DNA of 64,000 bases from Gemmatimonadota bacterium (GTDB lineage Bacteria > JAAXHH01): positions 68,217 to 132,216 of the forward strand of contig JAPOZT010000008.1 of the NCBI GenBank assembly GCA_026705925.1, read 5' to 3'. Shown one piece after another: positions 14,929 to 61,943 of this stretch; position 1 is the first letter of the stretch, and each line of letters begins with the position of its first letter. The translations under genes were made by a program, and so were the position numbers. The notes below the pieces were generated by a model that did not search any database, was not told the DNA's origin, and was given only the letters and a program-made list of their open reading frames with translations.

Positions 14929-16353
14929 ATGATTACGGAAGAGTCCGGTTTTAACTTCGATCCGAAATACGAAGATCCGGAAAAGCTGAAAGCGTTGTCC
15001 CGCAGAGGGTTTATGGGCCGGATCGCGGGCGGGCTCGCCGCAGGAACGGCCCTCCTGTCCATGACCGGAAAGGCCCGGGCGAAGCCGCCGATGCCCGAAG
15101 ACCACCTCCCGGAACCCGACGACGTGGCGTACTGGAACTGGGTGGCCGACCAGTACATCATCCGCGACGGCGTTTCCTTCATGAACACCGGGACGCGCGG
15201 ACCGTCCCCTGGTCCGGTGCACCGGGCGCAGATCGCCGCGCTGGAAGGCGCGAACTCGGATTACAAGAGCTACACCAGCTACGTCTACAACAGCGACTTC
15301 CGGGCACGGATGCGGGAGAAGATGGCGAAGTACCTCGGCTGCAAGTCGAACGAAGTCGCCTTCACCAACAACACGACCGAAGGCATGGTCTTCGGCACCT
15401 TCGGCATCGACATGGAGCCGGGCGATGAGATCGTGACAACCAATCACGATCATTCCAGCGGCGTGCAGCCCATCAACCTCCGGGCCGTCCGCCAGGGAAC
15501 GAAAACCGTCATGATCGACCTCTCGTCCCCCGAGTACCACCCGCCCGACAGTCCCGACGCGCTGCTCAAGGCCTTCGAGGCCGCCATCACGCCGCGCACG
15601 AAGATGCTCAGCTTCTGCCACATCAACTACGGCGACGGACTCGTCCTCCCCGTGAAGGAAATCTGCGAGATGGCCCGTTCAAAGGGCATCATTACGCTGG
15701 TCGATGGGGCGCAGCCCCCGGGCATGCTCGACCTGAACATGCACGACCTGGGTTGTGACATGTACGCGGGGCCGTGCCACAAGTGGATGATGGCCTCCAT
15801 GTACACGGGTTTCTTCTACGTGAAAGAGGATATCCTGGACCAGGTATGGCCGACCCTGTACGCCGGTCCGATAAACGGCCTGACCATGTACGGGCAGGAA
15901 CCCACGGGCTTCGCCAAGGTGTTCTACGAAGAATACCTGGCAGGCGCCTCCAAGTTCGAACTGCGGGGTTCCTCCAACGCCCCGGCCCGGGTCGCCATCG
16001 ACGCGGCACTGGACTTCCACAACATGATCGGACCGGCCGCCGTCGAGAGCCGGAACCGCTACCAGGCCACGCGCGTGGCCAATGCCCTGCGCAACATGGA
16101 CGGCGTGGAAGTATACAGTTCGCCCGATCCCCGCATGAGCGCGGCGCTCGTTTCGTTCAAGGTCACCGGCGTGGGTACGCGCGATGTCAACGACATGCTG
16201 TGGGATCGCCACCGTATCTACATCCGGAACGTCACGCACGACGAGATCAATTGGGACGCCAACCGGACGTCGATGCATATCATGGTGACCGACGCGCAGA
16301 CCGACCAGTTCATCGGCGCCATCGAGGAAATCGCGAAGGAGAAGCGCCTGTAG
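14929..16353 (+). CDS. class V aminotransferase-fold PLP-dependent enzyme with twin-arginine (Tat) signal peptide
   Basis: RBS AGGAGA before ATG 14929. SRRGFMGRIAGGLAAGTALLSMTGKARA is a Tat signal. The body matches the aminotransferase V family. Confidence 0.75.
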   Translation: MITEESGFNFDPKYEDPEKLKALSRRGFMGRIAGGLAAGTALLSMTGKARAKPPMPEDHLPEPDDVAYWNWVADQYIIRDGVSFMNTGTRGPSPGPVHRAQIAALEGANSDYKSYTSYVYNSDFRARMREKMAKYLGCKSNEVAFTNNTTEGMVFGTFGIDMEPGDEIVTTNHDHSSGVQPINLRAVRQGTKTVMIDLSSPEYHPPDSPDALLKAFEAAITPRTKMLSFCHINYGDGLVLPVKEICEMARSKGIITLVDGAQPPGMLDLNMHDLGCDMYAGPCHKWMMASMYTGFFYVKEDILDQVWPTLYAGPINGLTMYGQEPTGFAKVFYEEYLAGASKFELRGSSNAPARVAIDAALDFHNMIGPAAVESRNRYQATRVANALRNMDGVEVYSSPDPRMSAALVSFKVTGVGTRDVNDMLWDRHRIYIRNVTHDEINWDANRTSMHIMVTDAQTDQFIGAIEEIAKEKRL

Positions 16354-48923: not shown

Positions 48924-49712
48924 ATGTTTCAACTGGATGCACACCAGAAGGAATTTATGGATACCTTCGGGTATCTGCACTTCCCCGGCCTGCTCGACGA
49001 CCGGATCGGCGAGATCACAGAGGCTTTCGACGGGCTGCTGAAAAAAAACGGTGGCGACGACCACGAAGGCCTGGAGCGGCTGGCCGTGGTGCCGTTCATC
49101 AACCATGATTCGTACCTGTGCACGCTGTTGGACGATCCCCGCATTCACGGCATCGCGGCCGGCCTGCTGGGCGAGCGGTACCAGTACTGGAACAGCGACG
49201 GGAACCTCTACGTCGGCGACACGCGATGGCACTCCGACACCCAGTGGCCCGAGCCCATCCGTTTCTACAAGATGGCCATCTACCTGGACCCCATGACGAA
49301 GGACACCGGCGCGTTGCGGGTCATACCGGGAAGCCACCGGTTCGGAGAAGGATATGCGGAAACCATCCACGACCACCTGTCCGGCAAAAGGGACGGCTGG
49401 GGTGGACTCCACGGCAGCGAGGTACCGGCGGTCACCGTCGAGACCCGGCCCGGCGACCTGGCAGTCTTCAACCATTCCACCAAGCACAGCGCCTGGGGCG
49501 GCGGAAAGAAAAGGCGCATGTTCACGATCGTATATACCGGACACCACACGGACGGTCGTGATCTCGAGGCCTTCAAAAAGATCATCCGCCAACACGGCTA
49601 TACAACGCGGGAGGTATTCGGTGGGGAGAACGGCCCCCTGCTTTCCACGGCCACGCCCGAACGGCTTCGTCACCTTCAAAACCTGATCACGCACATTCCG
49701 AAAGCGGCTTGA
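48924..49712 (+). CDS. PhyH-family Fe(II)/2OG dioxygenase
   Basis: WHSDTQW...GALRVIPGSHRFG. Confidence 0.8.
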   Translation: MFQLDAHQKEFMDTFGYLHFPGLLDDRIGEITEAFDGLLKKNGGDDHEGLERLAVVPFINHDSYLCTLLDDPRIHGIAAGLLGERYQYWNSDGNLYVGDTRWHSDTQWPEPIRFYKMAIYLDPMTKDTGALRVIPGSHRFGEGYAETIHDHLSGKRDGWGGLHGSEVPAVTVETRPGDLAVFNHSTKHSAWGGGKKRRMFTIVYTGHHTDGRDLEAFKKIIRQHGYTTREVFGGENGPLLSTATPERLRHLQNLITHIPKAA

Positions 49713-49744
49713 AGTTACGGCACAGGAAGGGGAATACCACCAGC

Positions 49745-50776
49745 ATGTCTCTTACAAGGGATCAGTTTCAGCACTTTGTTGATGAAGGATACGTCATCGT
49801 CGAAGGCGCACTCACCAGAGACGACCTGGATCCCGTTATTGCGGGGATCGAGGTCTTCGTCGACGAACGGTCGCGAGCACTCCACCGCGAAGGACTCATT
49901 TCCGATCTGCACGAGAACGAACCCTTCGAGCGGCGGCTGGCCCTGATCACCCGGGAAAACACCGCGATCTACGATGACATCGACATCATGAACATGCGGC
50001 ACGAGGCGGTGTTCCGCTTTCTCGGCAACGGCCGCATGCTGGACCTGGTGGAATCCCTCGTCGGACCCGAAATCACGTGCAGCCCCATTCAGCATCTGCG
50101 GGCAAAGCTGCCGGAGAGCCTGAACAGCATGCCAGGTAACGGGAACGGCGGCAACGGCGGCACCAATAGTGGCGACGACGGAGACGGCAACAGTGGCGAC
50201 GGCGGCAACGGCCGCGCTGACGGCGATGGCGGCAAAGAGGACGCCCTGGCCGCCCGCATCAGGGAGAACGTGGCGCCCTGGCACCAGGACGCGCAGGTGC
50301 ATCTCGAGGACGCCGACCCGGTGTTCATTCTCACCGTATGGCTCCCCCTTTGCGACACCGACGAGGAGAACGGATGCCTGCAGATCATTCCGCGGGTGCA
50401 CCACAGCCGGACCGTGTACTGGAGCGAAGGATTCGGCATCGAAGAAGGCCGGCTGCCGGAGGGCGAGATCCTGTCCCTGTCGATGAGGAAGGGCGACGTC
50501 CTGCTCATGCACAAGCTGATCCCGCACCGGTCCATCCCCAACCGGTCCGGAACGATCCGGTGGAGCATCGACCTGCGTTATCAACAGACCGGCCTGCCCA
50601 CGGGCCGCTCCTTCTATCCCAACTTCATCGTCCGCAGCCGGCGCCATCCCGAATTCGTGCTATCGGACTACGCCACCTGGAACCGGGGTTGGGAGGAGGC
50701 GCTGAAGGTCACGGCGCAGCGTCCGCCCCGCAAGAACAGGCCCACCGAGCCGACCCCGATCCGGATGTACGGATAG
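49745..50776 (+). CDS. PhyH-family Fe(II)/2OG dioxygenase with N/G/D-rich low-complexity insertion
   Basis: WHQDAQV...LQIIPRVHHS. 50138-50240 encodes NGNGGNGGTNSGDDGDGNSGDGGNGRADGDGG. Confidence 0.8.
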   Translation: MSLTRDQFQHFVDEGYVIVEGALTRDDLDPVIAGIEVFVDERSRALHREGLISDLHENEPFERRLALITRENTAIYDDIDIMNMRHEAVFRFLGNGRMLDLVESLVGPEITCSPIQHLRAKLPESLNSMPGNGNGGNGGTNSGDDGDGNSGDGGNGRADGDGGKEDALAARIRENVAPWHQDAQVHLEDADPVFILTVWLPLCDTDEENGCLQIIPRVHHSRTVYWSEGFGIEEGRLPEGEILSLSMRKGDVLLMHKLIPHRSIPNRSGTIRWSIDLRYQQTGLPTGRSFYPNFIVRSRRHPEFVLSDYATWNRGWEEALKVTAQRPPRKNRPTEPTPIRMYG

Positions 50777-51551: not shown

Positions 51552-53369
51552 ATGACCCGCTCTACCGCGATTACATCCGCCCGCGTGTTTGCAGTTCTCG
51601 TGATTTTCAGCGCGACTGCGGCCGGAATCCTGCGCGTCCTGGGCGGACCGGGCGGACCGGGCGGACCGGGCGGACCGGGCAGTCCGGCCGGCGGCCAACC
51701 CGACCAATCATCCACCCGTTACGTCAACTCCGCAGGCGTCGAACTGCCCCCCGACGCGGCGCCGCCCTCGGAGCAGTACGTCCGCACGTTTCAGCTCGAC
51801 AACACCTACATGGAGTGGTTCCGCACGATCTACAAGGGCACCTACGGCCACCGGATCATCGCCGAACCGCTGATCCGCTTCGACAAGGACTTCAACCTGA
51901 TCCCGGCGGCGGCGAATCGCTGGGAACCCACCGCTGACGGGCTGGGGTGGTATTTCTACTTGCGGGACGACCTAGAGTTTTCCGACGGCAAGCCGCTGAC
52001 CGCCCACGACTACGTGTTTACTCTGCAACGTGGGGCCGATCCGGAAAACGCCTACGACGTGGAGTGGTATTACCGTCCGATCAAGAACTGGGGCCGCGTC
52101 GTGGGCCGGGAGCTGCCCCTCGACTCGCTGGGTGTCCACGCGGTAGACGACTACACCTTGCTCATCGAGACCGACGAACCCTGCGCCTACATGCCGGATC
52201 TGATGGTCGACAGCTGGGTCTCACCGCGCCAGGCGGTGGAGAAGTACGGCGACGCCTGGTCCACGAGCCCGGAGACCTCCATCGCCAGCGGGCCCTTCTA
52301 CCTGGATGAATGGACCAAGGCGGACCGGGTCGTGCTCAAGGCCAATCCCCGGTACCACGGGGCTGCGCGGCCCTACCTGGAGACGCTGATCGCCAGGCTG
52401 CACAACGCCTCGACGCCGCCGCCCCTGCTCGCGTCCTACGAGGCCGACGAGGTGGATTTCGGCCTCGTGACGAACCACGCCGAACTCGCCCGAATCAAGA
52501 CCGATCCGCAGTTGAGCAGGGAGTTGCATTCCTACACGGATTTCGCCACGTACTACCTCACGATGGACACCTACAACCCGCCCTTCGACAACCTCAAAGT
52601 ACGCCAGGCCTTCAGCCACGCCATCGACCGGGACGCCGTGTGCGAATCCGCGCTGCAGGGTTTCGCGATCCCCGCCTACTCCATGCTGCCGCCCGGCTTT
52701 CCGGCGGAAGCGACGGAAGCCCTGAAACCCGTCCAGCGATACGACCCCGCCCTGGGACGCAAGCTACTGGCCGAGGCGGGATACCCCGACGGCAAGGGCT
52801 TCCCGCGCGTGGAGATGTGGGTCCGGCGCGACGTACGGCCGGTGCACGAGGCCGGGGAGGCGATCCACGCCATGATCAAGCAGAACCTCGGGATCGACCT
52901 GGTCGTGCGCAACATGGAGGTCAAGATCTTCATGGACGCGATCAACAGTCACGAGCTTCCCCTGGGGCTCGTCCGGTTCGGCGCGGACTTCATCGATCCC
53001 AGCAGCCTGATGAATCTCTGGCTTTCCTCGGGTCGGCACGCCTGGAAACACGACCGTTTCGACCGGCTGGTGGTCCAGGCGGGAGGCATCGTCGGCGACT
53101 ACGAGGCGCGGATGGACGTCTACCGGCAGGCCGAACGCATCCTGGTGGAGGAAGTGGGCGGCCTCTTCGTATGGTACCCGACGATGAACCAGATCTGGAA
53201 ATCGGACATCAAGGGGGACGCGCTCGAGCCGAACCGGCGCGGATTCCGGGCCTGGCGGGGCGAGCAGATCGGGAACACGGCCTTTACGATATATATAGCG
53301 GAAGAGGACGGGGAGCAGGACGCCGGCACAAAGGGATTCTGGGAGCGGTTGCTGGGGGGCGGCGGATAG
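51552..53369 (+). CDS. ABC transporter substrate-binding protein, family 5 (peptide/oligosaccharide/nickel type), orphan
   Basis: Signal peptide, a GPGGPGGPGGPG linker, and SBP_bac_5 architecture. No permease or ATPase genes adjacent. Confidence 0.8.
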   Translation: MTRSTAITSARVFAVLVIFSATAAGILRVLGGPGGPGGPGGPGSPAGGQPDQSSTRYVNSAGVELPPDAAPPSEQYVRTFQLDNTYMEWFRTIYKGTYGHRIIAEPLIRFDKDFNLIPAAANRWEPTADGLGWYFYLRDDLEFSDGKPLTAHDYVFTLQRGADPENAYDVEWYYRPIKNWGRVVGRELPLDSLGVHAVDDYTLLIETDEPCAYMPDLMVDSWVSPRQAVEKYGDAWSTSPETSIASGPFYLDEWTKADRVVLKANPRYHGAARPYLETLIARLHNASTPPPLLASYEADEVDFGLVTNHAELARIKTDPQLSRELHSYTDFATYYLTMDTYNPPFDNLKVRQAFSHAIDRDAVCESALQGFAIPAYSMLPPGFPAEATEALKPVQRYDPALGRKLLAEAGYPDGKGFPRVEMWVRRDVRPVHEAGEAIHAMIKQNLGIDLVVRNMEVKIFMDAINSHELPLGLVRFGADFIDPSSLMNLWLSSGRHAWKHDRFDRLVVQAGGIVGDYEARMDVYRQAERILVEEVGGLFVWYPTMNQIWKSDIKGDALEPNRRGFRAWRGEQIGNTAFTIYIAEEDGEQDAGTKGFWERLLGGGG

Positions 53370-53573
53370 GCGCCGTCTGTCGAATCAGGAACGATGCCTT
53401 GACCGGAATGATCTTCTGGACGCATACGCACACTGTTTTTAAAGACGCCAGATACTTCAATTCCCACCTGTAGAAGTTACCGTCGTAAATCCCTGAATTT
53501 ACCCGAACGAAAACCCGGTTCACGGTGTTGTAAGATTGGTACCACATGAGCGCCGGTCAGCAAAGGACTCTGA

Positions 53574-54134
53574 ATGACCCAGGAAGAGGGACGATGCATC
53601 GCGCTGGAAATCCATCGCGGCAACCGGGACGCAGTGGGGGATCTGGTGGCGGCGTACCAGGACAGGCTCTTCACCTACGCCTTCCATATGCTGGGTGGTT
53701 CGGACGACGCCCTCGACGTTACGCAGGAGGCCTTTGTCAAGGCGTTCACCACGCTTACCGGGAAATACGACGCGGAGCGCTGCCGGACGCTCGAAATCCG
53801 TCCATGGCTGTACCGCATCGTCCGGAACCTGGCGTTGAACAGGCTGAGGTCGCGCAAACGAAGAGACGACGCGCTGGTCAGCATGAAGGACAACTTGCCA
53901 GCACAGGTTTTCGACACCGGAAACGACCTGGCCAGGACGAGCGCGATCCGAGCGGCCCTCACTGAATTGGGAAGAGAGAGCCGGGAACTGATCATCCTGC
54001 GCTATATCGAGCAATACACGTACGCGGAAATCGCGACGGTCACCGGCTCTTCGGAATCGGCGCTGCGGGGCAAAGTGCACCGTGCGTTGCGTAAACTTCG
54101 CAAGATCATGGAGGATGGCCCCAGTGGATCGTAA
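53574..54134 (+). CDS. ECF-type RNA polymerase sigma-70 factor
   Basis: Region 2 (DLVAAYQDRLFTYAFHMLGG...DVTQEAFVKAF) and region 4 (ELIILRYIEQYTYAEIATVTG). Confidence 0.85.
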   Translation: MTQEEGRCIALEIHRGNRDAVGDLVAAYQDRLFTYAFHMLGGSDDALDVTQEAFVKAFTTLTGKYDAERCRTLEIRPWLYRIVRNLALNRLRSRKRRDDALVSMKDNLPAQVFDTGNDLARTSAIRAALTELGRESRELIILRYIEQYTYAEIATVTGSSESALRGKVHRALRKLRKIMEDGPSGS

Positions 54135-55014
54135 CGAAGCAAGACAGTACCTGGATCAAATCAGATCCGGCGAGGCGGACGATGAGGTCAGCCGGTCCGT
54201 GAAGGAACAGCTGGAAAGGTGCGCCGATTTGTGCGAAGAGGCCGCTTTTTTGGAAAAACTGGCCGCGGAATTTCCCAAACTGAAAATGACCGCTCCCACA
54301 GGCATTGAGGAGGAAGTGATGATCAGGATTACAGACAAATACGATGTGATCGAAACGGATTTCGGACCGGCACACGTGGCATTCACACCCAAAGGCATTT
54401 CGGCCGTGAAACTCGACGTGGAGGAGGACGGCGCCTTCGAATCCTACTACGCCGACAGGCTGGGGCGGCCCACGGTCAGAGGTTCGCTCCCCGAATCGTA
54501 TGCCGATGCGGTCAGGCGGGCCATCAAAGGAGAGAAGAACACCCAGCCACCGGTCACGCTGGAGGGGTTGACCGAGTTCGAAAAGACCGTGCTGGAGCAT
54601 TTGGCCAGGATACCGACGGGCGAGGTCCGTCCCTATGCCTGGCTGGCCCGGGAAGTGGGCAGGCCGAAGGCGATCCGGGCCGTCGGAACTGTCATGGCCC
54701 GCAATCCCGTTCCCTTCCTGATGCCCTGCCACCGGCTCGTGCCCTCGACCGGAGGGGTGGGAAACTACTACTACGGACCGGAAATGAAATGGACCTTGCT
54801 GGAACGGGAAGGGATTCCGCGGGAAAACCTCGCGAACTGGAAGCAGCGCGGCGTGCGCTTCATCGGCAGCCGGACGACCGGCATCTACTGCTATCCGACC
54901 TGCCGCGACGCCCGGCGCGTTCAGCCGCAGCACCGCCTTGAATTCAGCGGTGCAGAAGAAGCGGTTGACGGCGGATACCGGCCGTGCAAGCATTGCAGGC
55001 CAATTTCGGTGTAG
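54115..55014 (+). CDS. anti-sigma-like N-terminal module fused to O6-alkylguanine-DNA alkyltransferase (Ogt/MGMT) and Ada-type Cys4 Zn methyl-acceptor domain
   Basis: Overlaps the sigma gene by ~20 nt. N-terminus EARQYLDQI..GEADDE..VKEQLERCADLCEEA. Ogt N-domain plus the PCHRLV active site (VPFLMPCHRLVPS). The C-terminus TTGIYCYPTCRDAR...GYRPCKHCRP aligns to Ada N-terminal TTGIFCRPSCRAR...GFRPCKRCQP. Confidence 0.75.
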   Translation: MAPVDRNEARQYLDQIRSGEADDEVSRSVKEQLERCADLCEEAAFLEKLAAEFPKLKMTAPTGIEEEVMIRITDKYDVIETDFGPAHVAFTPKGISAVKLDVEEDGAFESYYADRLGRPTVRGSLPESYADAVRRAIKGEKNTQPPVTLEGLTEFEKTVLEHLARIPTGEVRPYAWLAREVGRPKAIRAVGTVMARNPVPFLMPCHRLVPSTGGVGNYYYGPEMKWTLLEREGIPRENLANWKQRGVRFIGSRTTGIYCYPTCRDARRVQPQHRLEFSGAEEAVDGGYRPCKHCRPISV

Positions 55015-55028
55015 ATACAATGTAGATA

Positions 55029-55877
55029 CTACCGATTCCGTGGCGGTATTCGGTCGCCGACGGGTCGGGGTATGGGCCTCCAGTAACCCGAGGGATCGCT
55101 GCCGCGGCAGATTACGGCCCGGTTGTACTCCGGATAGCGGCCCCGCACGTCCGGCGGCAGGTACCGGATCGTCAGGCCGCAGCGCCGGCGGTCGGATACA
55201 TTCGGCTCGGACCCGTGCAACAGCAGATCGGTGTGCATGGAAATCTGGCCCGCCTTCATGACGAAGGGCACCGGATCGCCGCCCCATCTGAGCGGGTCCT
55301 GGACGGTCTGTCCCAGCACGTTGCGTTCGGCTTCCGTACTGTTCTCGAAGGGAATCTGACCGTGAAGGTGGGAACCTGGGATGACCGTCATGGGCCCGTT
55401 CTCTTCGTCCACGTCGTCGATGGCCAACCAAATCGTCACCACCTTGCTCGGGGTCAGAGGCCAGTACGACGCGTCCTGGTGCCAACTCACCCGCTGCACG
55501 TCGCCCGGCATCTTGCAGAAGTAGTGGGTCATCTCGCAGATCAGCGTCTCCCCGACCAGGTCTTCCGCGTAGTCCAGTATCCGCTTGTTCATGGTCAGGT
55601 TGTATATACCCTCGCAGTGCCGCTGCCAGCCATTGATCGAGTAGCTGTTGTATCCTTCCTGCTCGGCGCGGGCCATCAGATCTTCGAAATACAGACGGTT
55701 CTCTTCGGCTTCCTGCGGGGTGAAGACGTCGAGGGGACAGAGATACCCGTTCGCGTTGAAATGGTCGACCTGTTCGCGGGAAAGCGTTTTGGGGTGCTCG
55801 TTCGTTGCCGGGAAAAACCGCAGTTCCCGCTTCATTTCGGGCAGGGCGTCAGTGATGGGCATGGGCGACCTATTCAA
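55029..55877 (-). CDS. PhyH-family Fe(II)/2OG dioxygenase
   Basis: VSWHQDASYW...MTVIPGSH...DRRRCGLTIRY. Close paralogue of 18350-19123. Confidence 0.8.
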   Translation of the reverse strand: MNRSPMPITDALPEMKRELRFFPATNEHPKTLSREQVDHFNANGYLCPLDVFTPQEAEENRLYFEDLMARAEQEGYNSYSINGWQRHCEGIYNLTMNKRILDYAEDLVGETLICEMTHYFCKMPGDVQRVSWHQDASYWPLTPSKVVTIWLAIDDVDEENGPMTVIPGSHLHGQIPFENSTEAERNVLGQTVQDPLRWGGDPVPFVMKAGQISMHTDLLLHGSEPNVSDRRRCGLTIRYLPPDVRGRYPEYNRAVICRGSDPSGYWRPIPRPVGDRIPPRNR

Positions 55878-55972
55878 ATGTTCGTTGGTGGGGGACCTGA
55901 TCCGGTGGCGACATTGAATATACCGGCATAAATCGCTTGAGACAACCCTTTGAATGACTTAAATAACCATGT

Positions 55973-56791
55973 ATGGATGATACCACGAACAGGGCGCTGC
56001 ATTCGCTCGACCTCGCTCCGGGCGCGTCGCTTGATGACGTGAAGAAATCGTACCGGGAACTGGCTCTGATCTGGCATCCGGACAAGGTGCCCGACCGGGT
56101 AAAAGAACGGGCCACCGCCAAGTTCACGGAGATCAACGAGGCCTACCAGTGGCTCGTCCGCAATCCGGAATACCTGCGGGGGTCTTCGACCTCCGGGTCG
56201 TCTTACCGGTCTACTTCACAGCGTCAGTCTCCTTCCCGTTCTCGTTCTTCCTCGCAAACATCCCATACACGAGCGGAGTATTCTCGGCCCGGCGCCTCCC
56301 GTTCCGGCGCCACCTGGACCGACGCCTCCAGCCGCACGGGAGCCGGTTCTTCGGCCGATCCGGCTGTTCAGCGTGTTCGACAGGCCGCGCGCGGTATCTG
56401 GACCGATACCCGGGCCGGTCTCTACATCTACCCCGATATCGACGCAGATCGGGCGGCGAACTTCATCGTTTCGCTGCAGCGTGACTTACGTTTCAGCGGT
56501 GTGGCCGCGACGGTGAACGATCTGCTGGTGTTCTACGATATCGACGGTTCCGGTGAGGAAGGCATGGCCATCACGCGGTCGAACCGTCTGGTCAACAACA
56601 ACACCGGGACCCTGTATGACATCGGCGACTTGTTGGATGTCCAACTGAAGGAAGGATTCTTCTTCTGGAGCGAGGTCGTGGTGCGCAGAAGGGGAAGCCG
56701 GAGGTTTGAACTCGCGGGATATGCGGAAAAAGGACCTGGACGGGCGCTGGTGAGCATTCTGCGGTACCTGATCGAAGATGCACGAACGTAA
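55973..56791 (+). CDS. J-domain (DnaJ-like) protein with Ser/Arg-rich linker and uncharacterised C-terminal domain
   Basis: SLDLAPGASLDDVKKSYRELALIWHPDKV is a J-domain with HPD. No DnaJ zinc-finger or G/F region. Confidence 0.7.
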   Translation: MDDTTNRALHSLDLAPGASLDDVKKSYRELALIWHPDKVPDRVKERATAKFTEINEAYQWLVRNPEYLRGSSTSGSSYRSTSQRQSPSRSRSSSQTSHTRAEYSRPGASRSGATWTDASSRTGAGSSADPAVQRVRQAARGIWTDTRAGLYIYPDIDADRAANFIVSLQRDLRFSGVAATVNDLLVFYDIDGSGEEGMAITRSNRLVNNNTGTLYDIGDLLDVQLKEGFFFWSEVVVRRRGSRRFELAGYAEKGPGRALVSILRYLIEDART

Positions 56792-56830: not shown

Positions 56831-56890
56831 CTATCGCGCCCCTATCGCGCCCCTATCGCGCCCCTATCGCGCCCCTATCGCGCCCCCCTG
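56831..56890. repeat. tandem 12-nt repeat (CTATCGCGCCCC) x5
   Basis: Five perfect copies between the J-domain gene stop and the convergent gene. It overlaps the last codons of 56864-58021. Confidence 0.85.
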
Positions 56891-58021
56891 ATTGAGTACC
56901 CAGCGCGTCAGTGGTCCGCGGTTCTTGGTCACGACCAGCCGTTTGTCTCTCAACTCTTCCAGTGCTCTTCGAACCTGGCGTTCGCTGACGCCAGTACCTA
57001 ACCGAGCGTGAATGTCGCGGCGCGTCAGCCCCTCCTCTGCACGATTGAGCAAAACGAGGACTTCAGCACACCGGTTCGCACTACGACCTCCGCGATCACC
57101 CGATTCCGGCACGAACTGCCCGTTTCGGAACCTCACGGTGACGCACCAGCCGTCGTCTTCGATTTCCAGCGTGGGAAGGCCCGCTGCGCTGGTCAGGTCC
57201 GTCATCTTCAGCGTTCCGTGCCCCCACTCCTCTATGATCCCGCGTCGATGGAAAGCGCGGGCGATTAGTGGATTCCACGGGCGTGATTCGTGCGGAACGA
57301 ACAGCTTCTCAGGCGTCAGCCCGAAATGCAGCGATCCGGCGGACGTGATCTCCAGGCGGTCATCGTAGATCGCCACGCCAATGGAACCGCCGCCGATGGA
57401 ATAGTCGCGATGGCACAACGCGTTCGCCAGCGCCTCGCGGGTCGCAAGTGGCGGATAAAGCGGTTCGTCGATTCGGTCGAAGCGATCATCTTCGAACCGA
57501 GCGGCGATCGGCAGGCTGTCGCGCAGGAAACGTTCAGCGTTCGCGAGGAGCGTGAAGGCGTTGCCGTTGAACTGGCGATTGTCCAGGAATTTCATCTTGT
57601 CGGTTCCCCGGAAGCGGGCCACGCGAAGCAGGCATTGCGGCATTTCGACCTCCAATCTTTCCCCGTTGCCGAACAGGACGGCTGCCGCTCGAAGCAATAC
57701 GCCATCGTGCAGCAAACCGAGTCCTCGCAGCAGGTCGGCCGGCTCCCTGCTTGGCGGTTCATCCATGCGGCCGCGCCGAACGCCCTCCGCGACGACCCGT
57801 CGTATCTCCGCATCGTCAAGGTCGCTGATCGACCATCCGGCGGCAGGTTGGTTTTCCCACCGCTGCTCGCTGTGCATCCGTTCGAACAGCATCCGGTTGT
57901 ACTCGTCAGGAGACAGTACCAGCGTGGTGTTCCCGACCCGGCGGGTTCCCGTCGTCTCCTTGAACTCCAATGTCTCGGACTCGCCGGAGGCGGTGAGGGG
58001 TGTGATTAGTTCGTTATTCAT
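56864..58021 (-). CDS. AlbA_2 (Schlafen-like 'divergent AAA') plus HATPase_c_4 plus C-terminal winged-helix protein, often misannotated as RecG-like regulator
   Basis: The N-terminus ELITPLTASGESETLEFKETTG is the typical AlbA_2 opening. The central region is HATPase_c_4-like. The C-terminal wHTH is RRDIHARLGTGVSERQVRRALEELRDKRLV. Confidence 0.65.
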   Translation of the reverse strand: MNNELITPLTASGESETLEFKETTGTRRVGNTTLVLSPDEYNRMLFERMHSEQRWENQPAAGWSISDLDDAEIRRVVAEGVRRGRMDEPPSREPADLLRGLGLLHDGVLLRAAAVLFGNGERLEVEMPQCLLRVARFRGTDKMKFLDNRQFNGNAFTLLANAERFLRDSLPIAARFEDDRFDRIDEPLYPPLATREALANALCHRDYSIGGGSIGVAIYDDRLEITSAGSLHFGLTPEKLFVPHESRPWNPLIARAFHRRGIIEEWGHGTLKMTDLTSAAGLPTLEIEDDGWCVTVRFRNGQFVPESGDRGGRSANRCAEVLVLLNRAEEGLTRRDIHARLGTGVSERQVRRALEELRDKRLVVTKNRGPLTRWVLNQGGAIGAR

Positions 58022-58076
58022 GCTATCATCTCCTTTTGCATACTGGTCTGTCGGAAAGGAAGCAGGTCGGATAACG

Positions 58077-60260
58077 CTATTCCATCAGGACACTCCTGAA
58101 CCGGGCAATCGTATCCTCGTCCAGGTCTTCGATCCGCACTTCGCCGGAACCGAGCTCCGCGAGAAGATCATTCAGATGCCTGTCGCGGTTCCTGAGGCGG
58201 TTGGCATCGGCCGTGGTCATTTCCCGGTGGATGAGCCGCAGGCGCTCCCGCTGCTCCGAAGTCGGATAGGTAAACCGCAACTCGAAACGCCGCGCTCTCA
58301 GTTTCTCATATTCTGCTTTCAACTGGGCCATGGACTCGCCGAAACCAAGCACGCGGACCCACGCCTTACTTCGCGTTAACGCCGTAAACAGGCAGTTGCG
58401 TACGTTCGCCAGATTACGAACCGCCGAGTGACAGTCCTGGGCATTGATGATATAGACCATGCCGGCTTCGTTGCCCTTGGCGCGGTGAATCCCGGTCAGG
58501 GTCACCGATGCTCTGCCCGGTCGGAAGAAGGTATTCGGATCGGTGTCGACTCCGGCGAGATGGGATCTGATGCCCAGTTCCTTCAAACGACTGCGTATCG
58601 GTTCGACCTTCTCCCGAGTCGCACGAGGATCGGGGTTGATGACCATGATGTCGTCGTGGCGCAGTTCGTCCTTCAGGAAGTTCTCGGCAATGGCCTCCGC
58701 CAGCCAGTCCGCCTGTTCATCTTGGTTTCTGAAGGTGATAAAACGAATCAAGTCGTCGAGGTTGGAATGGTCTTCCAGAAATCCCGGACTCGTATCTTCC
58801 GTACGGTCAAGCGTAACGTCCGAACCGTCGCGCAGTGCCCCTTCCCGCACGCTGTAACCGATGTCTTCCCATAAATGAGCCCGGTCGAACATCTGGACCA
58901 GACCGGTTTCCATCGCAGGGGGCGGTTTCCGGTATATCCCGAGTCCAAGGGCAAACGCCGTGGCCAGCACCGGTTTCGAGTTGCGGTAACATTTCGACAG
59001 CATGATATCACGCTGCGGTGCGAGATCACCGGTGTCGTCAAACCTCACTTTGGGCGATCCATCCTTGTGCTTCCCGAAAATTTCTTCGGGAGAAGGCAGG
59101 GAACTGCCGCGAAGATTCTGCAGTTCGTCATAGGCGTACACCAGTCTCTTGGGTTGTTTGAGCAGTTTGTAGCAGAGCCTCAGAAATACGGGCGGTAAAT
59201 CCTGCGCCTCGTCGACAAGTATCGCGTCGTAGACCGGTTCTCGATTACGTGCATTAGCAAGGGCGTATTCGCACGCCCCCTTGAACTCCCCACCCGGTCC
59301 GAATCTGTTGCGCGCCTTTCCATAGTCAAAAAACGCCATTCCGTACAGGCGGCAGAACTCGGCATAGATGCCCCTGCGATCCTTGCCCTGCCAGGCACCC
59401 CAGGCGTTGACGACACGCAGCTTGTTCCAATCAGGCTCATCGCCGGTTTGTTCGATGAAGAAGTTGTTGATAAGGCGACGAAAATGATCCTTTAAGGAAC
59501 GTGAATTGAACGTGACCGCGATGCGCCATTCGGGATGATACGCATGGAAATAGGCGGCCTTCAGCGCCAGCACGATGGTTTTGCCCGAACCCGCCAGACC
59601 GCGAATACGTTGTATGCCTTCGACCGTTTCCATGACGGCGCGATGCTGCATGTTGTCCAGTGTCGCGATCGATTCCTCGAGTTTGACCAGCTTTGCGCCT
59701 CGCGAATCCTCCTCCGCAACACGCCGGTTGTATCCCCTTTTTCGCATCGTGGTGATGTGCTCGATCGCCGACAGCACCTTCGCGCACATATCCTGGTCAT
59801 GCGGACGCGACCAGGTGAACCGGTTCAGTTCCTGTATGAGCGAGGAGGCGCTCGCGAGCGGGTAGTCCCCTGAACGAGATGAATCACGATTTGAAACACG
59901 ACATGTATCCGGATTGGTCAGTGCGGGGGCGAATGAGATCGTATGGATGGGAACCATGAGATCCCGCCGACGCATCAGTCCCTGGTGTACCTTGAGCCGG
60001 GCTTCGAGCTTGTTGGCCGAATCATCCTGCCGCGCCCCGTAGTCACCCGTTTCGTGACCCTCTATGAGATCGAAAACGACCACGCCCATGTCAGCCGAAA
60101 CCAGCAGGGCGTCAATCATCTGGAGTCCTTCGGACGTACTGAAAATCGGATAGCCGATGAACAAGCACCCCGACCATGCGGATTGCTGGGAAACGATCTC
60201 CACCAGGGCATCGCTTGACGCAGGCTTCTGGCTGGCACCTCGAACGATATCGATACTCAT
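58077..60260 (-). CDS. NERD-domain plus SF1 (UvrD/Rep-like) helicase, Nhi-like architecture
   Basis: N-terminal NERD-like region (IDALLVSADMGVVVFDLIEG). Walker A GLAGSGKT. Motif II ILVDEAQDL. Motif VI LTGIHRAKGNEAGMVYI. C-terminal LFTALTRSKAWVRVLG. Start taken at MSIDIV because the upstream 33 codons are translated from a direct repeat. Confidence 0.75.
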   Translation of the reverse strand: MSIDIVRGASQKPASSDALVEIVSQQSAWSGCLFIGYPIFSTSEGLQMIDALLVSADMGVVVFDLIEGHETGDYGARQDDSANKLEARLKVHQGLMRRRDLMVPIHTISFAPALTNPDTCRVSNRDSSRSGDYPLASASSLIQELNRFTWSRPHDQDMCAKVLSAIEHITTMRKRGYNRRVAEEDSRGAKLVKLEESIATLDNMQHRAVMETVEGIQRIRGLAGSGKTIVLALKAAYFHAYHPEWRIAVTFNSRSLKDHFRRLINNFFIEQTGDEPDWNKLRVVNAWGAWQGKDRRGIYAEFCRLYGMAFFDYGKARNRFGPGGEFKGACEYALANARNREPVYDAILVDEAQDLPPVFLRLCYKLLKQPKRLVYAYDELQNLRGSSLPSPEEIFGKHKDGSPKVRFDDTGDLAPQRDIMLSKCYRNSKPVLATAFALGLGIYRKPPPAMETGLVQMFDRAHLWEDIGYSVREGALRDGSDVTLDRTEDTSPGFLEDHSNLDDLIRFITFRNQDEQADWLAEAIAENFLKDELRHDDIMVINPDPRATREKVEPIRSRLKELGIRSHLAGVDTDPNTFFRPGRASVTLTGIHRAKGNEAGMVYIINAQDCHSAVRNLANVRNCLFTALTRSKAWVRVLGFGESMAQLKAEYEKLRARRFELRFTYPTSEQRERLRLIHREMTTADANRLRNRDRHLNDLLAELGSGEVRIEDLDEDTIARFRSVLME

Positions 60261-60297
60261 GACGATTCCTTCCGGCAGGTCGCTTTCACCATCGCGC

Positions 60298-60367
60298 CAC
60301 GCACTCGCCAAGCATGCGCCACGTACACGCCACGCACACGTCACGCACTCGCCAAGCATGCGCCACT
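60298..60367. repeat. 25-nt direct repeat x2 (CACGCACTCGCCAAGCATGCGCCAC) with 20-nt spacer, in a CACGC-rich tract
   Basis: Immediately upstream of the helicase start on the minus strand. Confidence 0.7.
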
Positions 60368-60662
60368 CACGCGCAACGCACGCGTTCTCAGCGATCCGAA
60401 AGCGACAGTTCTTACGCAGTCCGGTTGCAGCGAGGCTGCGGCCTGGCTGCGGTCTGGCTGGCTGTCCGTTCAGACTGCGTTTTTACGGCTGTATAATTGA
60501 TTAGTAGGGAGAAACGAGGGAGTCTCGTAAGGAAACTCAGATGGAGAGATGGCGCCAGGGAGCGTTGGATGCCTGGCTATAGTCCATGGAGAAACTGGAA
60601 AAGGCGGTGCAGGTGGGTTGGGTAAGGGAGGTTATGGCGTCTTCCAAGGACAACCAGAAGTC

Positions 60663-60755
60663 TTAGGTTTCTGGCAGAAAAGTCACCACGCCTTCGCAAG
60701 GCGCAGCCCACGTCGGTTTCGAAATGACATGGGTGTCCAGCAGGTACCCGTTCAT
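60663..60755 (-). pseudogene. VapC/PIN toxin remnant (N-terminal 30 codons then TAA)
   Basis: MNGYLLDTHVISKPTWAAPCEGVVTFLPET* matches the VapC opening (M.YLLDTNVISE..KP.P...V..WL). Its ATG overlaps the antitoxin TGA as ATGA. No PIN core follows in any frame. Confidence 0.5.
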
Positions 60756-61057
60756 GCTACATCGTCGTCAGCGAACGGCGTCTTGCGATTGGTGTTGCGG
60801 TCCGGAGTGGTCAGGTTGGTACCGCGCGGTATGTTGTTCAACAGCCATTGGCCGAGTGCTTTCCGCGGTGCTTCCTTTCGCTCTCGCCAGACACGTTCCG
60901 GAATGACGACGAACGCTCTGCGCGTTCCAATGCGTTGCGGGCCTTCTTCTTCCGACAGGCGTAGTATCTCGGACAGCCGCGCCTTGGCCTTGGATAACTT
61001 CCAGACTCGTGTAGGTTTGACTTCGTGCTGATTCAATGTGCCACCTTTTAAGTTCAA
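60752..61057 (-). CDS. Phd/YefM-type antitoxin-like protein
   Basis: VWKLSKAKARLSEILRLSEEEGPQRIGTRRAFVVIPERVW fits the Phd/YefM antitoxin pattern. ATGA-coupled to the downstream VapC remnant. Confidence 0.55.
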   Translation of the reverse strand: MNLKGGTLNQHEVKPTRVWKLSKAKARLSEILRLSEEEGPQRIGTRRAFVVIPERVWRERKEAPRKALGQWLLNNIPRGTNLTTPDRNTNRKTPFADDDVA

Positions 61058-61153
61058 TGATTGACCTTAAAGTTCTTCCATTACCGCAACCGTAACGTCC
61101 ACCACTGCAGTCGAATCCGGCCCTGGTGCGTCAATCATCGCCCGTTTCAACCG

Positions 61154-61489
61154 TTATTCTGCGTACATCTCGGCGATGATGCGGCGCAACTGTGCCGCGC
61201 TTTCGGCGGAAAGGCTGTCAACAAGTTGTCCCAGACGCTGCTTGCTGATGGTGCGTATCTGGTCAACGGCAATCTCGGCGTCCCGATCCGCGCACCGCAC
61301 TTGCAGACGCCCTCGCCAGCGTGGATGCAGGTTAGAGGTAATGGGACAGACGACCACAGTCTCGAGGTGCCGGTTCATTTCGTCGCGGCTGACAATCACC
61401 ACCGGCCTGACCTTGCGAATTTCAGCACCTTTGGTGGGATTCAAGTCAGCCATGTACACGGCATACCGCCGGGGAAACGGGGCCATCAA
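61154..61489 (-). CDS. mazF: type II toxin MazF/PemK family mRNA interferase
   Basis: YMADLNPTKGAEIRKVRPVVIVS...VVVCPITS...DQIRTISKQRL. Confidence 0.8.
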   Translation of the reverse strand: MMAPFPRRYAVYMADLNPTKGAEIRKVRPVVIVSRDEMNRHLETVVVCPITSNLHPRWRGRLQVRCADRDAEIAVDQIRTISKQRLGQLVDSLSAESAAQLRRIIAEMYAE

Positions 61490-61749
61490 TCCAATCCATC
61501 GGCAATTGTGACGTCGAAGTCGCTCCAGTCCTCTGATTCTGCGGCCATGGCGCGGTAGGTCTCCTCCCAGGACAGGTTATGATTCACCTTGCCCCGCAAG
61601 ACGATGCTTTCCTCCATCTCTTCCAGCGTCACCCGGTCACTCCATCCATACTTGTCCAGCAGCGCTTTGGGAATGCGGATGCCTCTGGAATTCCCAATAG
61701 GAATCAACTTGATTTCCCTGATGCGAGACGATTTGTCCATACACTTCAC
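61486..61749 (-). CDS. mazE: MazE/AbrB-family (SpoVT_AbrB swapped-hairpin) antitoxin
   Basis: IPIGNSRGIRIPKALL. 4-nt overlap with mazF. Confidence 0.75.
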   Translation of the reverse strand: MKCMDKSSRIREIKLIPIGNSRGIRIPKALLDKYGWSDRVTLEEMEESIVLRGKVNHNLSWEETYRAMAAESEDWSDFDVTIADGLD

Positions 61750-61943
61750 CTCCGCTGAGGGCTTATTACGTAATTATAGTAATTACTTTTTATTCCTTTG
61801 TCAACGCCATACCGCCTGTCGCTCCTGCATACCTGTCGAGCCAGTGACCTGTTGATCTCCACCAAATGTGATTGGGACGCTTCATGCCATTCGTTGCCAA
61901 TGCTCTATACTCATTCGCTTCCTCGTTGAAATCCAGACCCGGC

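Follow-up and report, generated by a model that had tools for sequence, protein, structure and literature searches.

An ECF sigma factor gene in DNA from a Gemmatimonadota bacterium is overlapped by a gene whose product joins a predicted anti-sigma domain to an O6-alkylguanine-DNA alkyltransferase and an Ada-type Cys4 zinc domain. The stretch of DNA that was analyzed (64,000 nucleotides, referred to below as the window) contains this gene pair within the following features:

53504..53529, plus strand: conserved ECF-type promoter, with a −35 element CGAAC at 53504-53508, a 15-nt spacer, and a −10 element GGTGTT at 53524-53529, located 45 nt before the sigma factor ATG
53574..54134, plus strand: gene for an ECF (group 4) sigma factor of 186 aa, whose only domains are sigma2 and sigma4
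54110..54114, plus strand: GGAGG ribosome-binding site of the second gene, read from the sequence, 9 nt 5' of GTG 54124 and within the end of the sigma factor gene
54124..55014, plus strand: gene for the predicted anti-sigma::alkyltransferase::Ada-Zn fusion, 296 aa from GTG 54124
54124..54333, plus strand: predicted class I anti-sigma domain, residues 1-70, assigned from the match of the family profile to the PDB, zf-HC2 matches, and AlphaFold2/Foldseek
54340..54816, plus strand: O6-alkylguanine-DNA alkyltransferase, N-domain residues ~73-147 and C-domain residues 151-231, assigned from PF01035 and the 1sfe fold match
54850..55002, plus strand: Ada-type Cys4 zinc domain, residues 243-293, assigned from PF02805, the invariant Cys residues, and the 1u8b match

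The interpretation favored here, which appears somewhat better than an even bet, is that these two genes form a self-contained, autoregulated module, in which the fusion protein is both an anti-sigma factor and a suicide repair enzyme and its alkylation frees the sigma factor. Binding of the sigma factor by the fusion protein is plausible, and so, with considerably more reserve, is its alkylation-triggered release.

The product of the first gene, with its sigma2 and sigma4 domains and a length within the expected range (~180-200 aa), belongs to the ECF (group 4) members of the sigma-70 family. It matches the Pfam domains Sigma70_r2 (E value of 2e-13), Sigma70_r4_2 (1.2e-12), and Sigma70_ECF, with PF04542, PF08281, and PF07638 all over the gathering thresholds, and scores 86.7 bits with TIGR02937 (cutoff of 42.9). 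Its best sequence match in the PDB is SigW (5wuq_A; E value of 3e-18), and its dN/dS ratios versus its relatives are 0.19 to 0.26.

The preliminary description of this DNA had recognized an ECF sigma factor gene overlapped by a second ORF, which is borne out by these matches, but it put the overlap at ~20 nt and the length of the second ORF at 300 aa. The alternative start codon, ATG 54115, would give a 299-aa product. GTG 54124 is the more likely start, because the homologs begin with MD[RCK]NEAR and are 296 aa long, the GGAGG sequence is 9 nt upstream of it, and the resulting 11-nt overlap with the sigma factor stop codon is the commonest value among the full-length family loci. With this start, the two genes share 11 nt rather than 20. 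Translation of the N-terminal segment, on which the earlier proposal was said to depend, is indicated by the conserved reading frame and by dN/dS values below 1. Exact and near-identical fusion proteins are encoded in Gemmatimonadota metagenome-assembled genomes under no annotation other than methylated-DNA--protein-cysteine methyltransferase; public annotation labels them plain methyltransferases.

The middle part of the fusion protein matches PF01035 with an E value of 1.7e-25 and scores 83.7 bits with the alkyltransferase model TIGR00589 (cutoff of 46.4). The NCBIfam Ada model aligns residues 74 to 233 of the fusion protein to residues 189 to 349 of Ada, so the alkyltransferase N-domain is also present. 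The acceptor Cys202, encoded at 54727-54729, is found in an intact PCHR motif. In the 116-member family alignment (A3), the invariant residues are P164, G166, E167, R169, Y171, W173, A175, G179, P181, A183, R185, A186, G188, N194, P195, P197, P201, C202, H203, R204, G210, G211, G213, Y215, G218, K222, L226, and E229. The closest structure is that of the C-terminal part of E. coli Ada (C-Ada, 1sfe), with an E value of 3.5e-13 and a TMt of 0.80 for the AlphaFold2 model. As far as can be judged from the sequence and the model, the PCHR motif, the catalytic-core residues, and the two-domain fold are those of an O6-alkylguanine-DNA alkyltransferase, in agreement with the earlier view that this domain is complete.

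The C-terminal part matches the Ada_Zn_binding domain (PF02805; E value of 1.1e-11, 45 bits versus a 23-bit cutoff) over profile positions 15 to 64 of 65 only. Cys256 (54889-54891) is the equivalent of Ada Cys38, the further ligands are Cys260, Cys288, and Cys291, and all four are invariant in 116 of 116 sequences. Comparison with methylated N-Ada (1u8b) gave 51 aligned columns with 43% identity and an rmsd of 1.9. Both the sequence and the model thus point to the N-terminal zinc domain of Ada, with its Cys4 site and methyl-acceptor Cys, as had been proposed. Unlike E. coli Ada, the fusion protein carries this domain at its C terminus, so that the domain order is inverted, and it has no AraC/HTH_18 match; both points had been made in the preliminary description. 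With the Ada equivalog model NF011964, it scores 100 bits versus a cutoff of 345.

The anti-sigma assignment of the N terminus, also made earlier, holds for the family profile, the zf-HC2 matches, and the fold, but the window copy has no significant HMM match of its own: its N-terminal ~70 aa gave no significant match to Pfam anti-sigma models, and the best NCBIfam match was to anti-sigmaE, with an E value of 0.12. This segment aligns along its full length with its homologs, and 71 of the 116 family members match Pfam zf-HC2. The N-terminal profile of the family matched RsiW (E value of 1.9e-6) and RslA (2.4e-4) in the PDB, followed by DdvA and ChrR; the best matches of this profile (RsiW) and of the sigma factor (SigW) come from the same co-crystal, 5WUQ. 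In the AlphaFold2 model of the fusion protein (pLDDT of 92.4; 84 to 92 across models), helices 3-15, 20-32, and 34-53 form a bundle, followed by a linker and helix 4 (residues 61-70, encoded at 54304-54333), which is the four-helix layout of class I (ASDI) anti-sigma domains. In a Foldseek search with the N-terminal model, the top 7 PDB matches were RsiW, MucA, and RseA, all bound to ECF sigma factors, albeit with weak E values of 0.09 to 4. The helix-1 LD motif includes Asp11, which is found in 114 of the 116 full-length aligned sequences, is invariant in the 42-sequence N-terminal alignment, and may be the counterpart of an Asp previously described as contacting sigma4 (PMC7406223).

The state of the window copy could also mean that the anti-sigma domain is decaying in this lineage, leaving a plain bifunctional Ogt/Ada-type repair enzyme cotranscribed with a sigma factor that is controlled otherwise, e.g., transcriptionally. 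In addition to lacking a significant HMM match, including one to ZAS/zf-HC2 (PF13490), the window copy has a degenerate version (R3, Q29, C33, L36) of the H-x3-C-x2-C motif with its upstream Cys/His that is seen family-wide, so that three of the four canonical ligands are gone. The anti-sigma domain is also the fastest-evolving part of the protein, with dN/dS values of 0.35 to 0.86 versus 0.10 to 0.21 for the repair domains. For residues 2-54, the values are 0.72 to 0.86 versus the closest relatives, which could reflect relaxed constraint, and 0.35 to 0.44 versus more distant ones. However, dN/dS stays below 1 throughout, the reading frame is free of frameshifts and stops, the window copy still has the conserved LD motif of helix 1 and AP motif of helix 4, and the fold is modeled with confidence. 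Poor conservation is also typical of anti-sigma domains in general. Furthermore, class I domains without zinc are common, and members with and without it occur side by side in the same groups (PMC7406223). Decay of the domain is accordingly unlikely.

An ECF sigma factor gene is located directly upstream of, and overlaps, the fusion gene at each of the 53 family loci for which sufficient upstream sequence is available; the overlap is 11 nt in the full-length type, including the window copy, and 4 nt in the short type described below. The genomic neighborhood is that expected for a class I anti-sigma factor. In a contrast set of ~60 classical Ada/Ogt loci, a sigma-like neighbor was seen at a single, MGMT-only locus (L025). 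The pairing recurs at every family locus examined and so exceeds chance. The family is represented in Gemmatimonadota, Acidobacteriota, Chloroflexota, Actinomycetota, and other phyla. A short variant, found in Actinomadura, Spirillospora, and Acidimicrobiia, with Actinomadura chokoriensis DLS-47 and Spirillospora sp. NBC_00431 among its cultured carriers, lacks anti-sigma helices 1-3 and retains helix 4, the sigma pairing, and the promoter. In two Chloroflexia loci (L005 and L007), the sigma factor and fusion genes are followed in the operon by a gene for an MGMT-AdaZn protein (244 to 253 aa, without the anti-sigma domain), adjoining the sensor copy, and by an HhH-GPD (AlkA-like) gene; these additional genes appear to tie the module to alkylation repair.

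Another possibility is that the fusion protein is a true anti-sigma factor whose signal is thiol oxidation or an electrophile acting at its own zinc site, as in RsrA, with the repair domains as mere cargo. Most family members do have the full C-H-x3-C-x2-C set, its four ligands being kept in 89, 108, 109, and 90 of the 116 sequences, respectively. However, these ligands are variable and have largely disappeared from the window clade: two or three of them are missing in the window copy and its closest relatives, in which the operon, the promoter, and the repair cysteines are fully conserved. The short variant is without helices 1-3 and still keeps its sigma factor and promoter, and the zinc of RsiW, the nearest relative of known structure, was reported to be structural rather than sensory (PMC7406223). 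Sensing at this site is quite unlikely; the invariance of PCHR and of the four Ada-type Cys residues in all 116 sequences, against the variable zinc ligands of the anti-sigma domain, suggests instead that the sensor is located in the repair domains.

The columns of the CGAAC-N15-GGTGTT promoter are invariant when six orthologous upstream regions are aligned, and the strict pattern precedes the sigma factor gene in loci L001-L005, L086, L088-L092, and L124-L127. A relaxed pattern was found in 36 of 37 nonredundant loci, compared with 2.7% of background windows. This conservation, which extends across phyla, suggests that the sigma factor drives its own operon from this promoter. The GGAAC sequence at ~53389, put forward in the preliminary description as a −35 element, was dismissed because it is not conserved among the orthologous upstream regions. 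In the 64-kb window, 53504-53529 is the sole strict site and also the sole one when one mismatch is allowed, so that the search for the same motif near alkA/alkB-type genes, proposed in the same description, returned in the window only the sigma factor's own site. The parts of the window examined contained neither a second promoter copy nor an alkA/alkB-type gene, which leaves a regulon larger than the operon unproven. A loose pattern gave extra sites at 15898, 49990, and 60773, which were rejected as having the wrong spacing and, by their coordinates, apparently lying within ORFs. A scan of positions 53300-56100 for sigma-70 promoters and terminators yielded nothing relevant.

According to the favored mechanism, the sigma factor and its partner would be coproduced from the overlapping genes, off a promoter recognized by the sigma factor itself. 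The partner, a soluble class I anti-sigma factor, would grip the sigma factor with its N-terminal four-helix domain, helices 1-3 contacting sigma4 and helix 4 contacting sigma2. The O6-alkylguanine transferase would take alkyl groups on Cys202, and the zinc domain would take methyl groups from methylphosphotriesters on Cys256, so that one repair event would leave one anti-sigma molecule irreversibly alkylated. The alkylated protein is proposed to lose its grip on the sigma factor by either of two routes: the alkylated transferase fold could be destabilized and the protein proteolyzed, or the methylated zinc domain could be altered in its charge and DNA affinity. There are precedents for both, as alkylated human AGT has a perturbed structure and is degraded, and Ada is switched electrostatically when its Cys38 is methylated. 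The liberated sigma factor would then transcribe the operon, and the newly made repair protein would silence it again after the damage is cleared; in Chloroflexia, the same transcript would supply a second alkyltransferase and the AlkA-like glycosylase. More tentatively, although with nearly even chances, this module may be a "consumption-counting" switch, in which one molecule of the suicide-repair inhibitor is destroyed per alkyl lesion and the amount of free sigma factor reports the lesion load stoichiometrically.

It is highly unlikely that the two proteins form a constitutive complex used for targeting, with the enzyme tethered by the sigma factor to RNA polymerase or to promoter DNA, or with the sigma factor positioned by the enzyme as it scans DNA, and no alkylation signal; both repair domains bind DNA, the operon is the sole visible target of the sigma factor, and E. 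coli Ada touches region 4 of sigma70 at some promoters, but an operon in which a sigma/anti-sigma pair is autoregulated has the standard layout of a switch. In solved complexes, moreover, class I anti-sigma domains cover the surfaces with which the sigma factor binds the core enzyme and the −35 element (PMC7406223), and a sigma factor bound in this way should therefore be off RNA polymerase.

The proposed switch resembles the SigW-RsiW (Bacillus subtilis, 5WUQ), SigL-RslA, RpoE-ChrR, and SigR-RsrA systems, in which an ECF sigma factor is followed by a cotranscribed four-helix anti-sigma partner. With the ECF/class I (ZAS-type) pairs it shares the family consensus H-x3-C-x2-C and an autoregulated promoter, although the window copy is without that set of zinc ligands. 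In contrast to the SigW-RsiW-type pairs, the partner is soluble, two suicide repair domains replace the transmembrane, extracytoplasmic, or cupin sensor, and the signal would be covalent self-alkylation rather than regulated intramembrane proteolysis or thiol oxidation. The similarity to E. coli Ada includes the Cys4 zinc domain and the O6-alkylguanine transferase, both irreversible methyl acceptors, as well as positive autoregulation and, in Chloroflexia, the association with an AlkA-like gene. Unlike that of Ada, the output would come from withholding and freeing a dedicated sigma factor, not from direct promoter binding. Stand-alone Ogt/AdaB and AdaA-type proteins have the same catalytic domains but neither an anti-sigma segment nor a paired sigma factor gene.

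Among the classified ECF groups, ECF122 and ECF203 have an O6-methylguanine methyltransferase encoded at position +1, and ECF203 also has Ada_Zn_binding (1.22 per ECF); both groups are described as exclusively actinobacterial and as having "no putative anti-sigma factor," with the mechanism listed as unknown (Casas-Pastor et al. 2021; PMC8999054). TetR was suggested as the regulator of ECF203, whose promoter was reported as not conserved, and the ECF122 promoter was given as CTCAC-Xn-CGTCTAC (Casas-Pastor et al. 2021; PMC8999054). The window sigma factor is similar to ECF203 in having a +1 methyltransferase that carries Ada_Zn, a likeness judged by the group description. The short variant fits the description of ECF203 and probably represents this group. 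The window system differs from both groups in its Gemmatimonadota origin and in having a methyltransferase with a full anti-sigma domain attached; its promoter is clearly conserved, unlike that of ECF203, and differs in sequence from that of ECF122. The earlier suggestion that the architecture is undescribed can thus be retained only in part: the +1 methyltransferase was already on record in these groups, but no anti-sigma factor was recorded there. A literature search for anti-sigma/alkyltransferase fusions or ECF-controlled alkylation responses found only these notes on ECF122 and ECF203 and no published account of such a fusion acting as an anti-sigma factor.

ECF sigma factors are one of the largest bacterial signaling families, and for many groups neither a regulator nor a signal is known. 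Should the fusion protein prove to be an anti-sigma factor, irreversible self-alkylation in the course of DNA repair would be a new type of input, and it would explain the two groups, ECF203 and ECF122, listed without an anti-sigma factor or a mechanism. In that case, the lone helix-4 segment on the methyltransferase would be a minimal anti-sigma factor, the missing regulator of ECF203 and perhaps of ECF122. The logic of Ada, with a suicide repair protein as the damage sensor, would have been reinvented with another output device across several phyla, the adaptive response being rebuilt on a sigma/anti-sigma chassis. Consumption counting, if true, would bring a cytoplasmic DNA damage input to ECF signaling, unlike proteolytic cascades, partner switching, or redox sensing. 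The module could also be used as a compact orthogonal alkylation biosensor.

Besides the MGMT-AdaZn and AlkA-like pair of Chloroflexia, no consistent downstream partner recurred across the loci. A PhyH dioxygenase gene was considered as an AlkB-like partner and rejected, as it is convergent and is syntenic only in the Gemmatimonadota-like clade, which indicates lineage synteny. Elsewhere, the downstream genes, identified by eye or from precomputed Pfam matches, encode class V aminotransferase-like, transketolase-like, NHL-repeat, and other proteins; several of the downstream candidate ORFs are probably shadow ORFs.

In the window, a gene for an ECF sigma factor is followed by a gene for a 296-aa fusion protein, in which an N-terminal segment precedes an O6-alkylguanine-DNA alkyltransferase (MGMT) domain and an Ada zinc domain (Ada-Zn):

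53574-54134, + strand: ECF sigma gene, a 186-aa ORF with Pfam and NCBIfam matches
54124-55014, + strand: fusion gene, the next ORF after the sigma gene; start probably GTG at 54124, alternatively ATG at 54115
53504-53508 (CGAAC) and 53524-53529 (GGTGTT), + strand: predicted promoter of the sigma gene, from the upstream alignment of six loci

The sigma factor assignment made in the preliminary description is borne out by matches of the 186-aa product to the Pfam domains Sigma70_r2, Sigma70_r4_2, and Sigma70_ECF and by a score above the TIGR02937 ECF cut-off; its closest sequence match in the PDB is SigW, which has been co-crystallized with RsiW. In loci collected through exact-protein look-ups and scans of species-representative genomes and metagenomes, with sigma adjacency judged by tblastn with the window sigma and by ORF inspection, an ECF sigma gene is located immediately upstream in all 53 colinear alkyltransferase-then-Ada-Zn loci with enough upstream DNA (the sigma of locus L017 was not picked up by tblastn and was confirmed by Pfam). 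Among the ∼60 classical Ada/Ogt loci in the same scan, an adjacent sigma gene was seen only in the Janibacter locus L025, where it precedes a methyltransferase without the zinc domain. Taxa with family members include Gemmatimonadota, Acidobacteriota, Thermoanaerobaculia, Chloroflexia, Limnocylindrales, Acidimicrobiia, Actinomadura, Spirillospora, Dormibacterota, and one gammaproteobacterial MAG, with one further homologue from the protein search annotated as Zixibacteria. With a profile run against 1.84 billion representatives, 615 clusters were found at E ≤ 1e-30; of the clusters listed, about the first hundred are mostly colinear family members.

Both predicted repair domains are present in the fusion protein, which matches PF01035 (O6-alkylguanine transferase; E = 1.7e-25) and PF02805 (Ada zinc domain; E = 1.1e-11). 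Its residues 74-233 align with residues 189-349 of Ada in the NCBIfam Ada model, so the alkyltransferase N-domain is present too. The score against this model (100 bits) is far under the equivalog cut-off of 345, and no AraC-type HTH was found in the fusion protein in the Pfam/NCBIfam scan. A confident AlphaFold2 model (pLDDT 92.4, pTM 0.76), built from 116 homologues, resembles numerous alkyltransferases, among them E. coli C-Ada (1sfe; E = 3.5e-13, TMt 0.80), and its last 51 residues correspond to methylated N-Ada (1u8b; 43% identity, rmsd 1.9). Invariant in the 116 sequences are the PCHR motif (C202), the Ada cysteines C256, C260, C288, and C291, and other residues of the alkyltransferase catalytic core, including Y171, R185, N194, Y215, and E229. 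The dN/dS values are 0.10-0.15 for the alkyltransferase, 0.11-0.21 for the zinc domain, and 0.19-0.26 for the sigma gene.

The ATG at 54115 is a possible start of the fusion gene, but GTG at 54124 is favored by the homologues, which are mostly 296 aa long and start with MD[RCK]NEAR, by a GGAGG sequence 9 nt ahead of it, and by the resulting overlap with the sigma stop codon of 11 nt (rather than the ∼20 nt reported initially), the commonest value among full-length family loci. Whichever start is used, translation covers the N-terminal ∼70 residues.

The suggestion that the first ∼60 residues resemble an anti-sigma factor holds for the family, although the window N terminus alone gave no significant match to anti-sigma HMMs (best E = 0.12). 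The first protein search yielded at least 116 full-length members of the family, with the N-terminal consensus MxC...LDxxRTGE...H-x3-C-x2-C...AP......V; 71 of the 116 match Pfam zf-HC2 (best E = 2.9e-9). A PDB search with a profile of 42 N termini retrieved RsiW (5wuq_C; E = 1.9e-6) and RslA (3hug_B; 2.4e-4), as well as DdvA and ChrR. The 72 N-terminal residues of the window protein are modeled as four helices (AlphaFold2, pLDDT 84). Across the entire PDB, the seven best fold hits are ECF-sigma-bound anti-sigma domains without exception (RsiW, MucA, RseA), with weak E values of 0.09-4. The four-helix organization agrees with how class I anti-sigma domains have been described, with three helices bundled on sigma4 and a fourth, beyond a linker, on sigma2 (PMC7406223). 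Of the 116 members, 89, 108, 109, and 90 carry the canonical zinc ligand at the four respective positions; the window protein has R3, Q29, C33, and L36 there, retaining one of the four, and the motif is likewise degenerate in its closest relatives. Class I domains that bind no zinc have been described before, as have groups in which zinc and non-zinc members are mixed (PMC7406223). Residues 2-54 (54127-54285) show dN/dS of 0.35-0.86, compared to 0.10-0.26 for the rest of the operon, and this fast evolution of the bundle in the window lineage could reflect either relaxed constraint or rapid co-evolution with the sigma factor. The family protein is likely the cognate anti-sigma factor of its sigma; for the window copy, the same role is probable, with a little less confidence.

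The GGAAC element at ∼53389, initially proposed as the −35 box, is not conserved in the aligned upstream regions. In the alignment of the window with five relatives, reaching down to 49% protein identity, the CGAAC and GGTGTT blocks are invariant and 15 nt apart; the window copy sits 45 nt before the sigma ATG. The strict motif occurs upstream of sigma in loci L001-L005 (including Chloroflexota), L086, L088-L092, and L124-L127. A relaxed expression, itself drawn up from this data set, is found in 36 of the 37 non-redundant loci versus 2.7% of random 200-nt windows. A predicted promoter conserved in this way ahead of the sigma gene is what is typically seen in ECF operons under autoregulation. 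Within the 64-kb window, 53504-53529 is the only strict copy. Loose GAAC-N14-17-GGTGTT matches number 4, against 0.36 expected; the three extra ones (15898-15923, 49990-50013, and 60773-60796) have non-canonical spacing, apparently lie inside ORFs by their coordinates, and are probably due to chance. The only extra strict site among family loci is found within an NHL-repeat gene at L003:7592-7617 and L004:6938-6963, ∼380 nt upstream of a gene for a 395-aa protein (matching DUF7790 in L004), a possible additional sigma target.

The best-supported reading is an autoregulated two-gene module whose putative anti-sigma factor is a bifunctional suicide repair enzyme. In the mechanism proposed for it, self-alkylation would use up the inhibitor, the sigma factor would be freed, and the repair protein would thereby be replenished; we have moderate confidence in module and mechanism taken together. 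The proposed switch is consistent with the invariant sensor-domain cysteines and the dispensable anti-sigma zinc site. It is also consistent with the behavior of known alkyltransferases: alkylated AGT is destabilized and degraded, and methylated Cys38 of Ada serves as an electrostatic switch.

The family falls into two subtypes. Type A proteins, including that of the window, are ∼293-306 aa long, with a complete four-helix domain and a sigma-stop overlap of usually 11 nt. Type B proteins, found in Actinomycetota, among others, are ∼250-270 aa long and start at ATGA or GTGA, overlapping the sigma stop by 4 nt:

L008, L009, L011, L012, L014-L020, and L094-L119: type B loci, e.g., L016:5968-6747 and L017:5902-6738

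They lack anti-sigma helices 1-3, with no zf-HC2 match, and keep an L..LA...AP......V segment that aligns to type A helix 4 and the last part of helix 3. Their promoters have GCAAC-N16-GKGTT at the same place, with the AAC-to-GTT distance of type A. In the window gene, an in-frame ATG at 54286-54288 encodes Met55 within KLKMTAP, just ahead of the helix-4 AP motif; initiation at this hypothetical start would yield a type B-like short protein.

In the published ECF classification (Casas-Pastor et al.), ECF203 and ECF122 have an O6-methylguanine methyltransferase conserved at +1, and ECF203 has Ada_Zn_binding at 1.22 per ECF; its authors identified no anti-sigma factor and suggested a TetR for ECF203, and a later review placed ECF122 under "unknown mechanism." Type B fits the description of ECF203, and methyltransferase-only partners fit that of ECF122; we infer the corresponding assignments from these descriptions. 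Type B may represent an anti-sigma factor in minimal form and the regulator that ECF203 lacks. In the literature searched, neither an anti-sigma::alkyltransferase fusion nor an ECF-controlled alkylation response is described, and public records label the family simply as methylated-DNA--protein-cysteine methyltransferase. The architecture had at first not been recognized as a described one, and for the fusion variant this holds within the literature searched; the sigma-methyltransferase pairing is already on record for ECF122 and ECF203, and the module is therefore not categorically new. For ECF groups lacking a known regulator, it proposes an answer that is specific and open to testing.

In two Chloroflexia loci, the operon runs on in the same strand with two more genes:

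L005:5442-8671 and L007:5451-8603: sigma, anti-sigma-MGMT-AdaZn, a second MGMT-AdaZn without the N-terminal segment, and an HhH-GPD (AlkA-like) glycosylase

This arrangement points to a duplication that gave rise to one copy for sensing and another for bulk repair. Outside these loci, no consistent downstream partner was found among the loci compared. The window-clade neighbors, an SBP_bac_5 gene, a convergent PhyH dioxygenase, and a DnaJ-domain gene, look like lineage synteny. The window encodes three PhyH-family 2-oxoglutarate dioxygenases, with more in relatives L125-L127:

18350-19123, − strand: PhyH-family gene
49709-50776, + strand: PhyH-family gene
55029-55877, − strand: PhyH-family gene, convergent with the fusion gene

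The last of these is syntenic across the clade at 74-96% identity, above the conservation of the fusion protein. Further on, the genes in 56864-61900 have a third-position GC of 0.60-0.72, versus >0.8 elsewhere, and include those for an HATPase_c_4 protein and a UvrD-like helicase; the matching region varies among relatives, with DUF3800, a UvrD-like gene, and PIN in L124 and DnaJ followed by TENA in L125. The stretch probably represents an island that is variable or was acquired, and it may have a role in defense. At 51590-51690, the SBP_bac_5 N terminus carries a GGP/PGG repeat (GGPGGPGGPGGPGSP) that stems from a short tandem DNA repeat.
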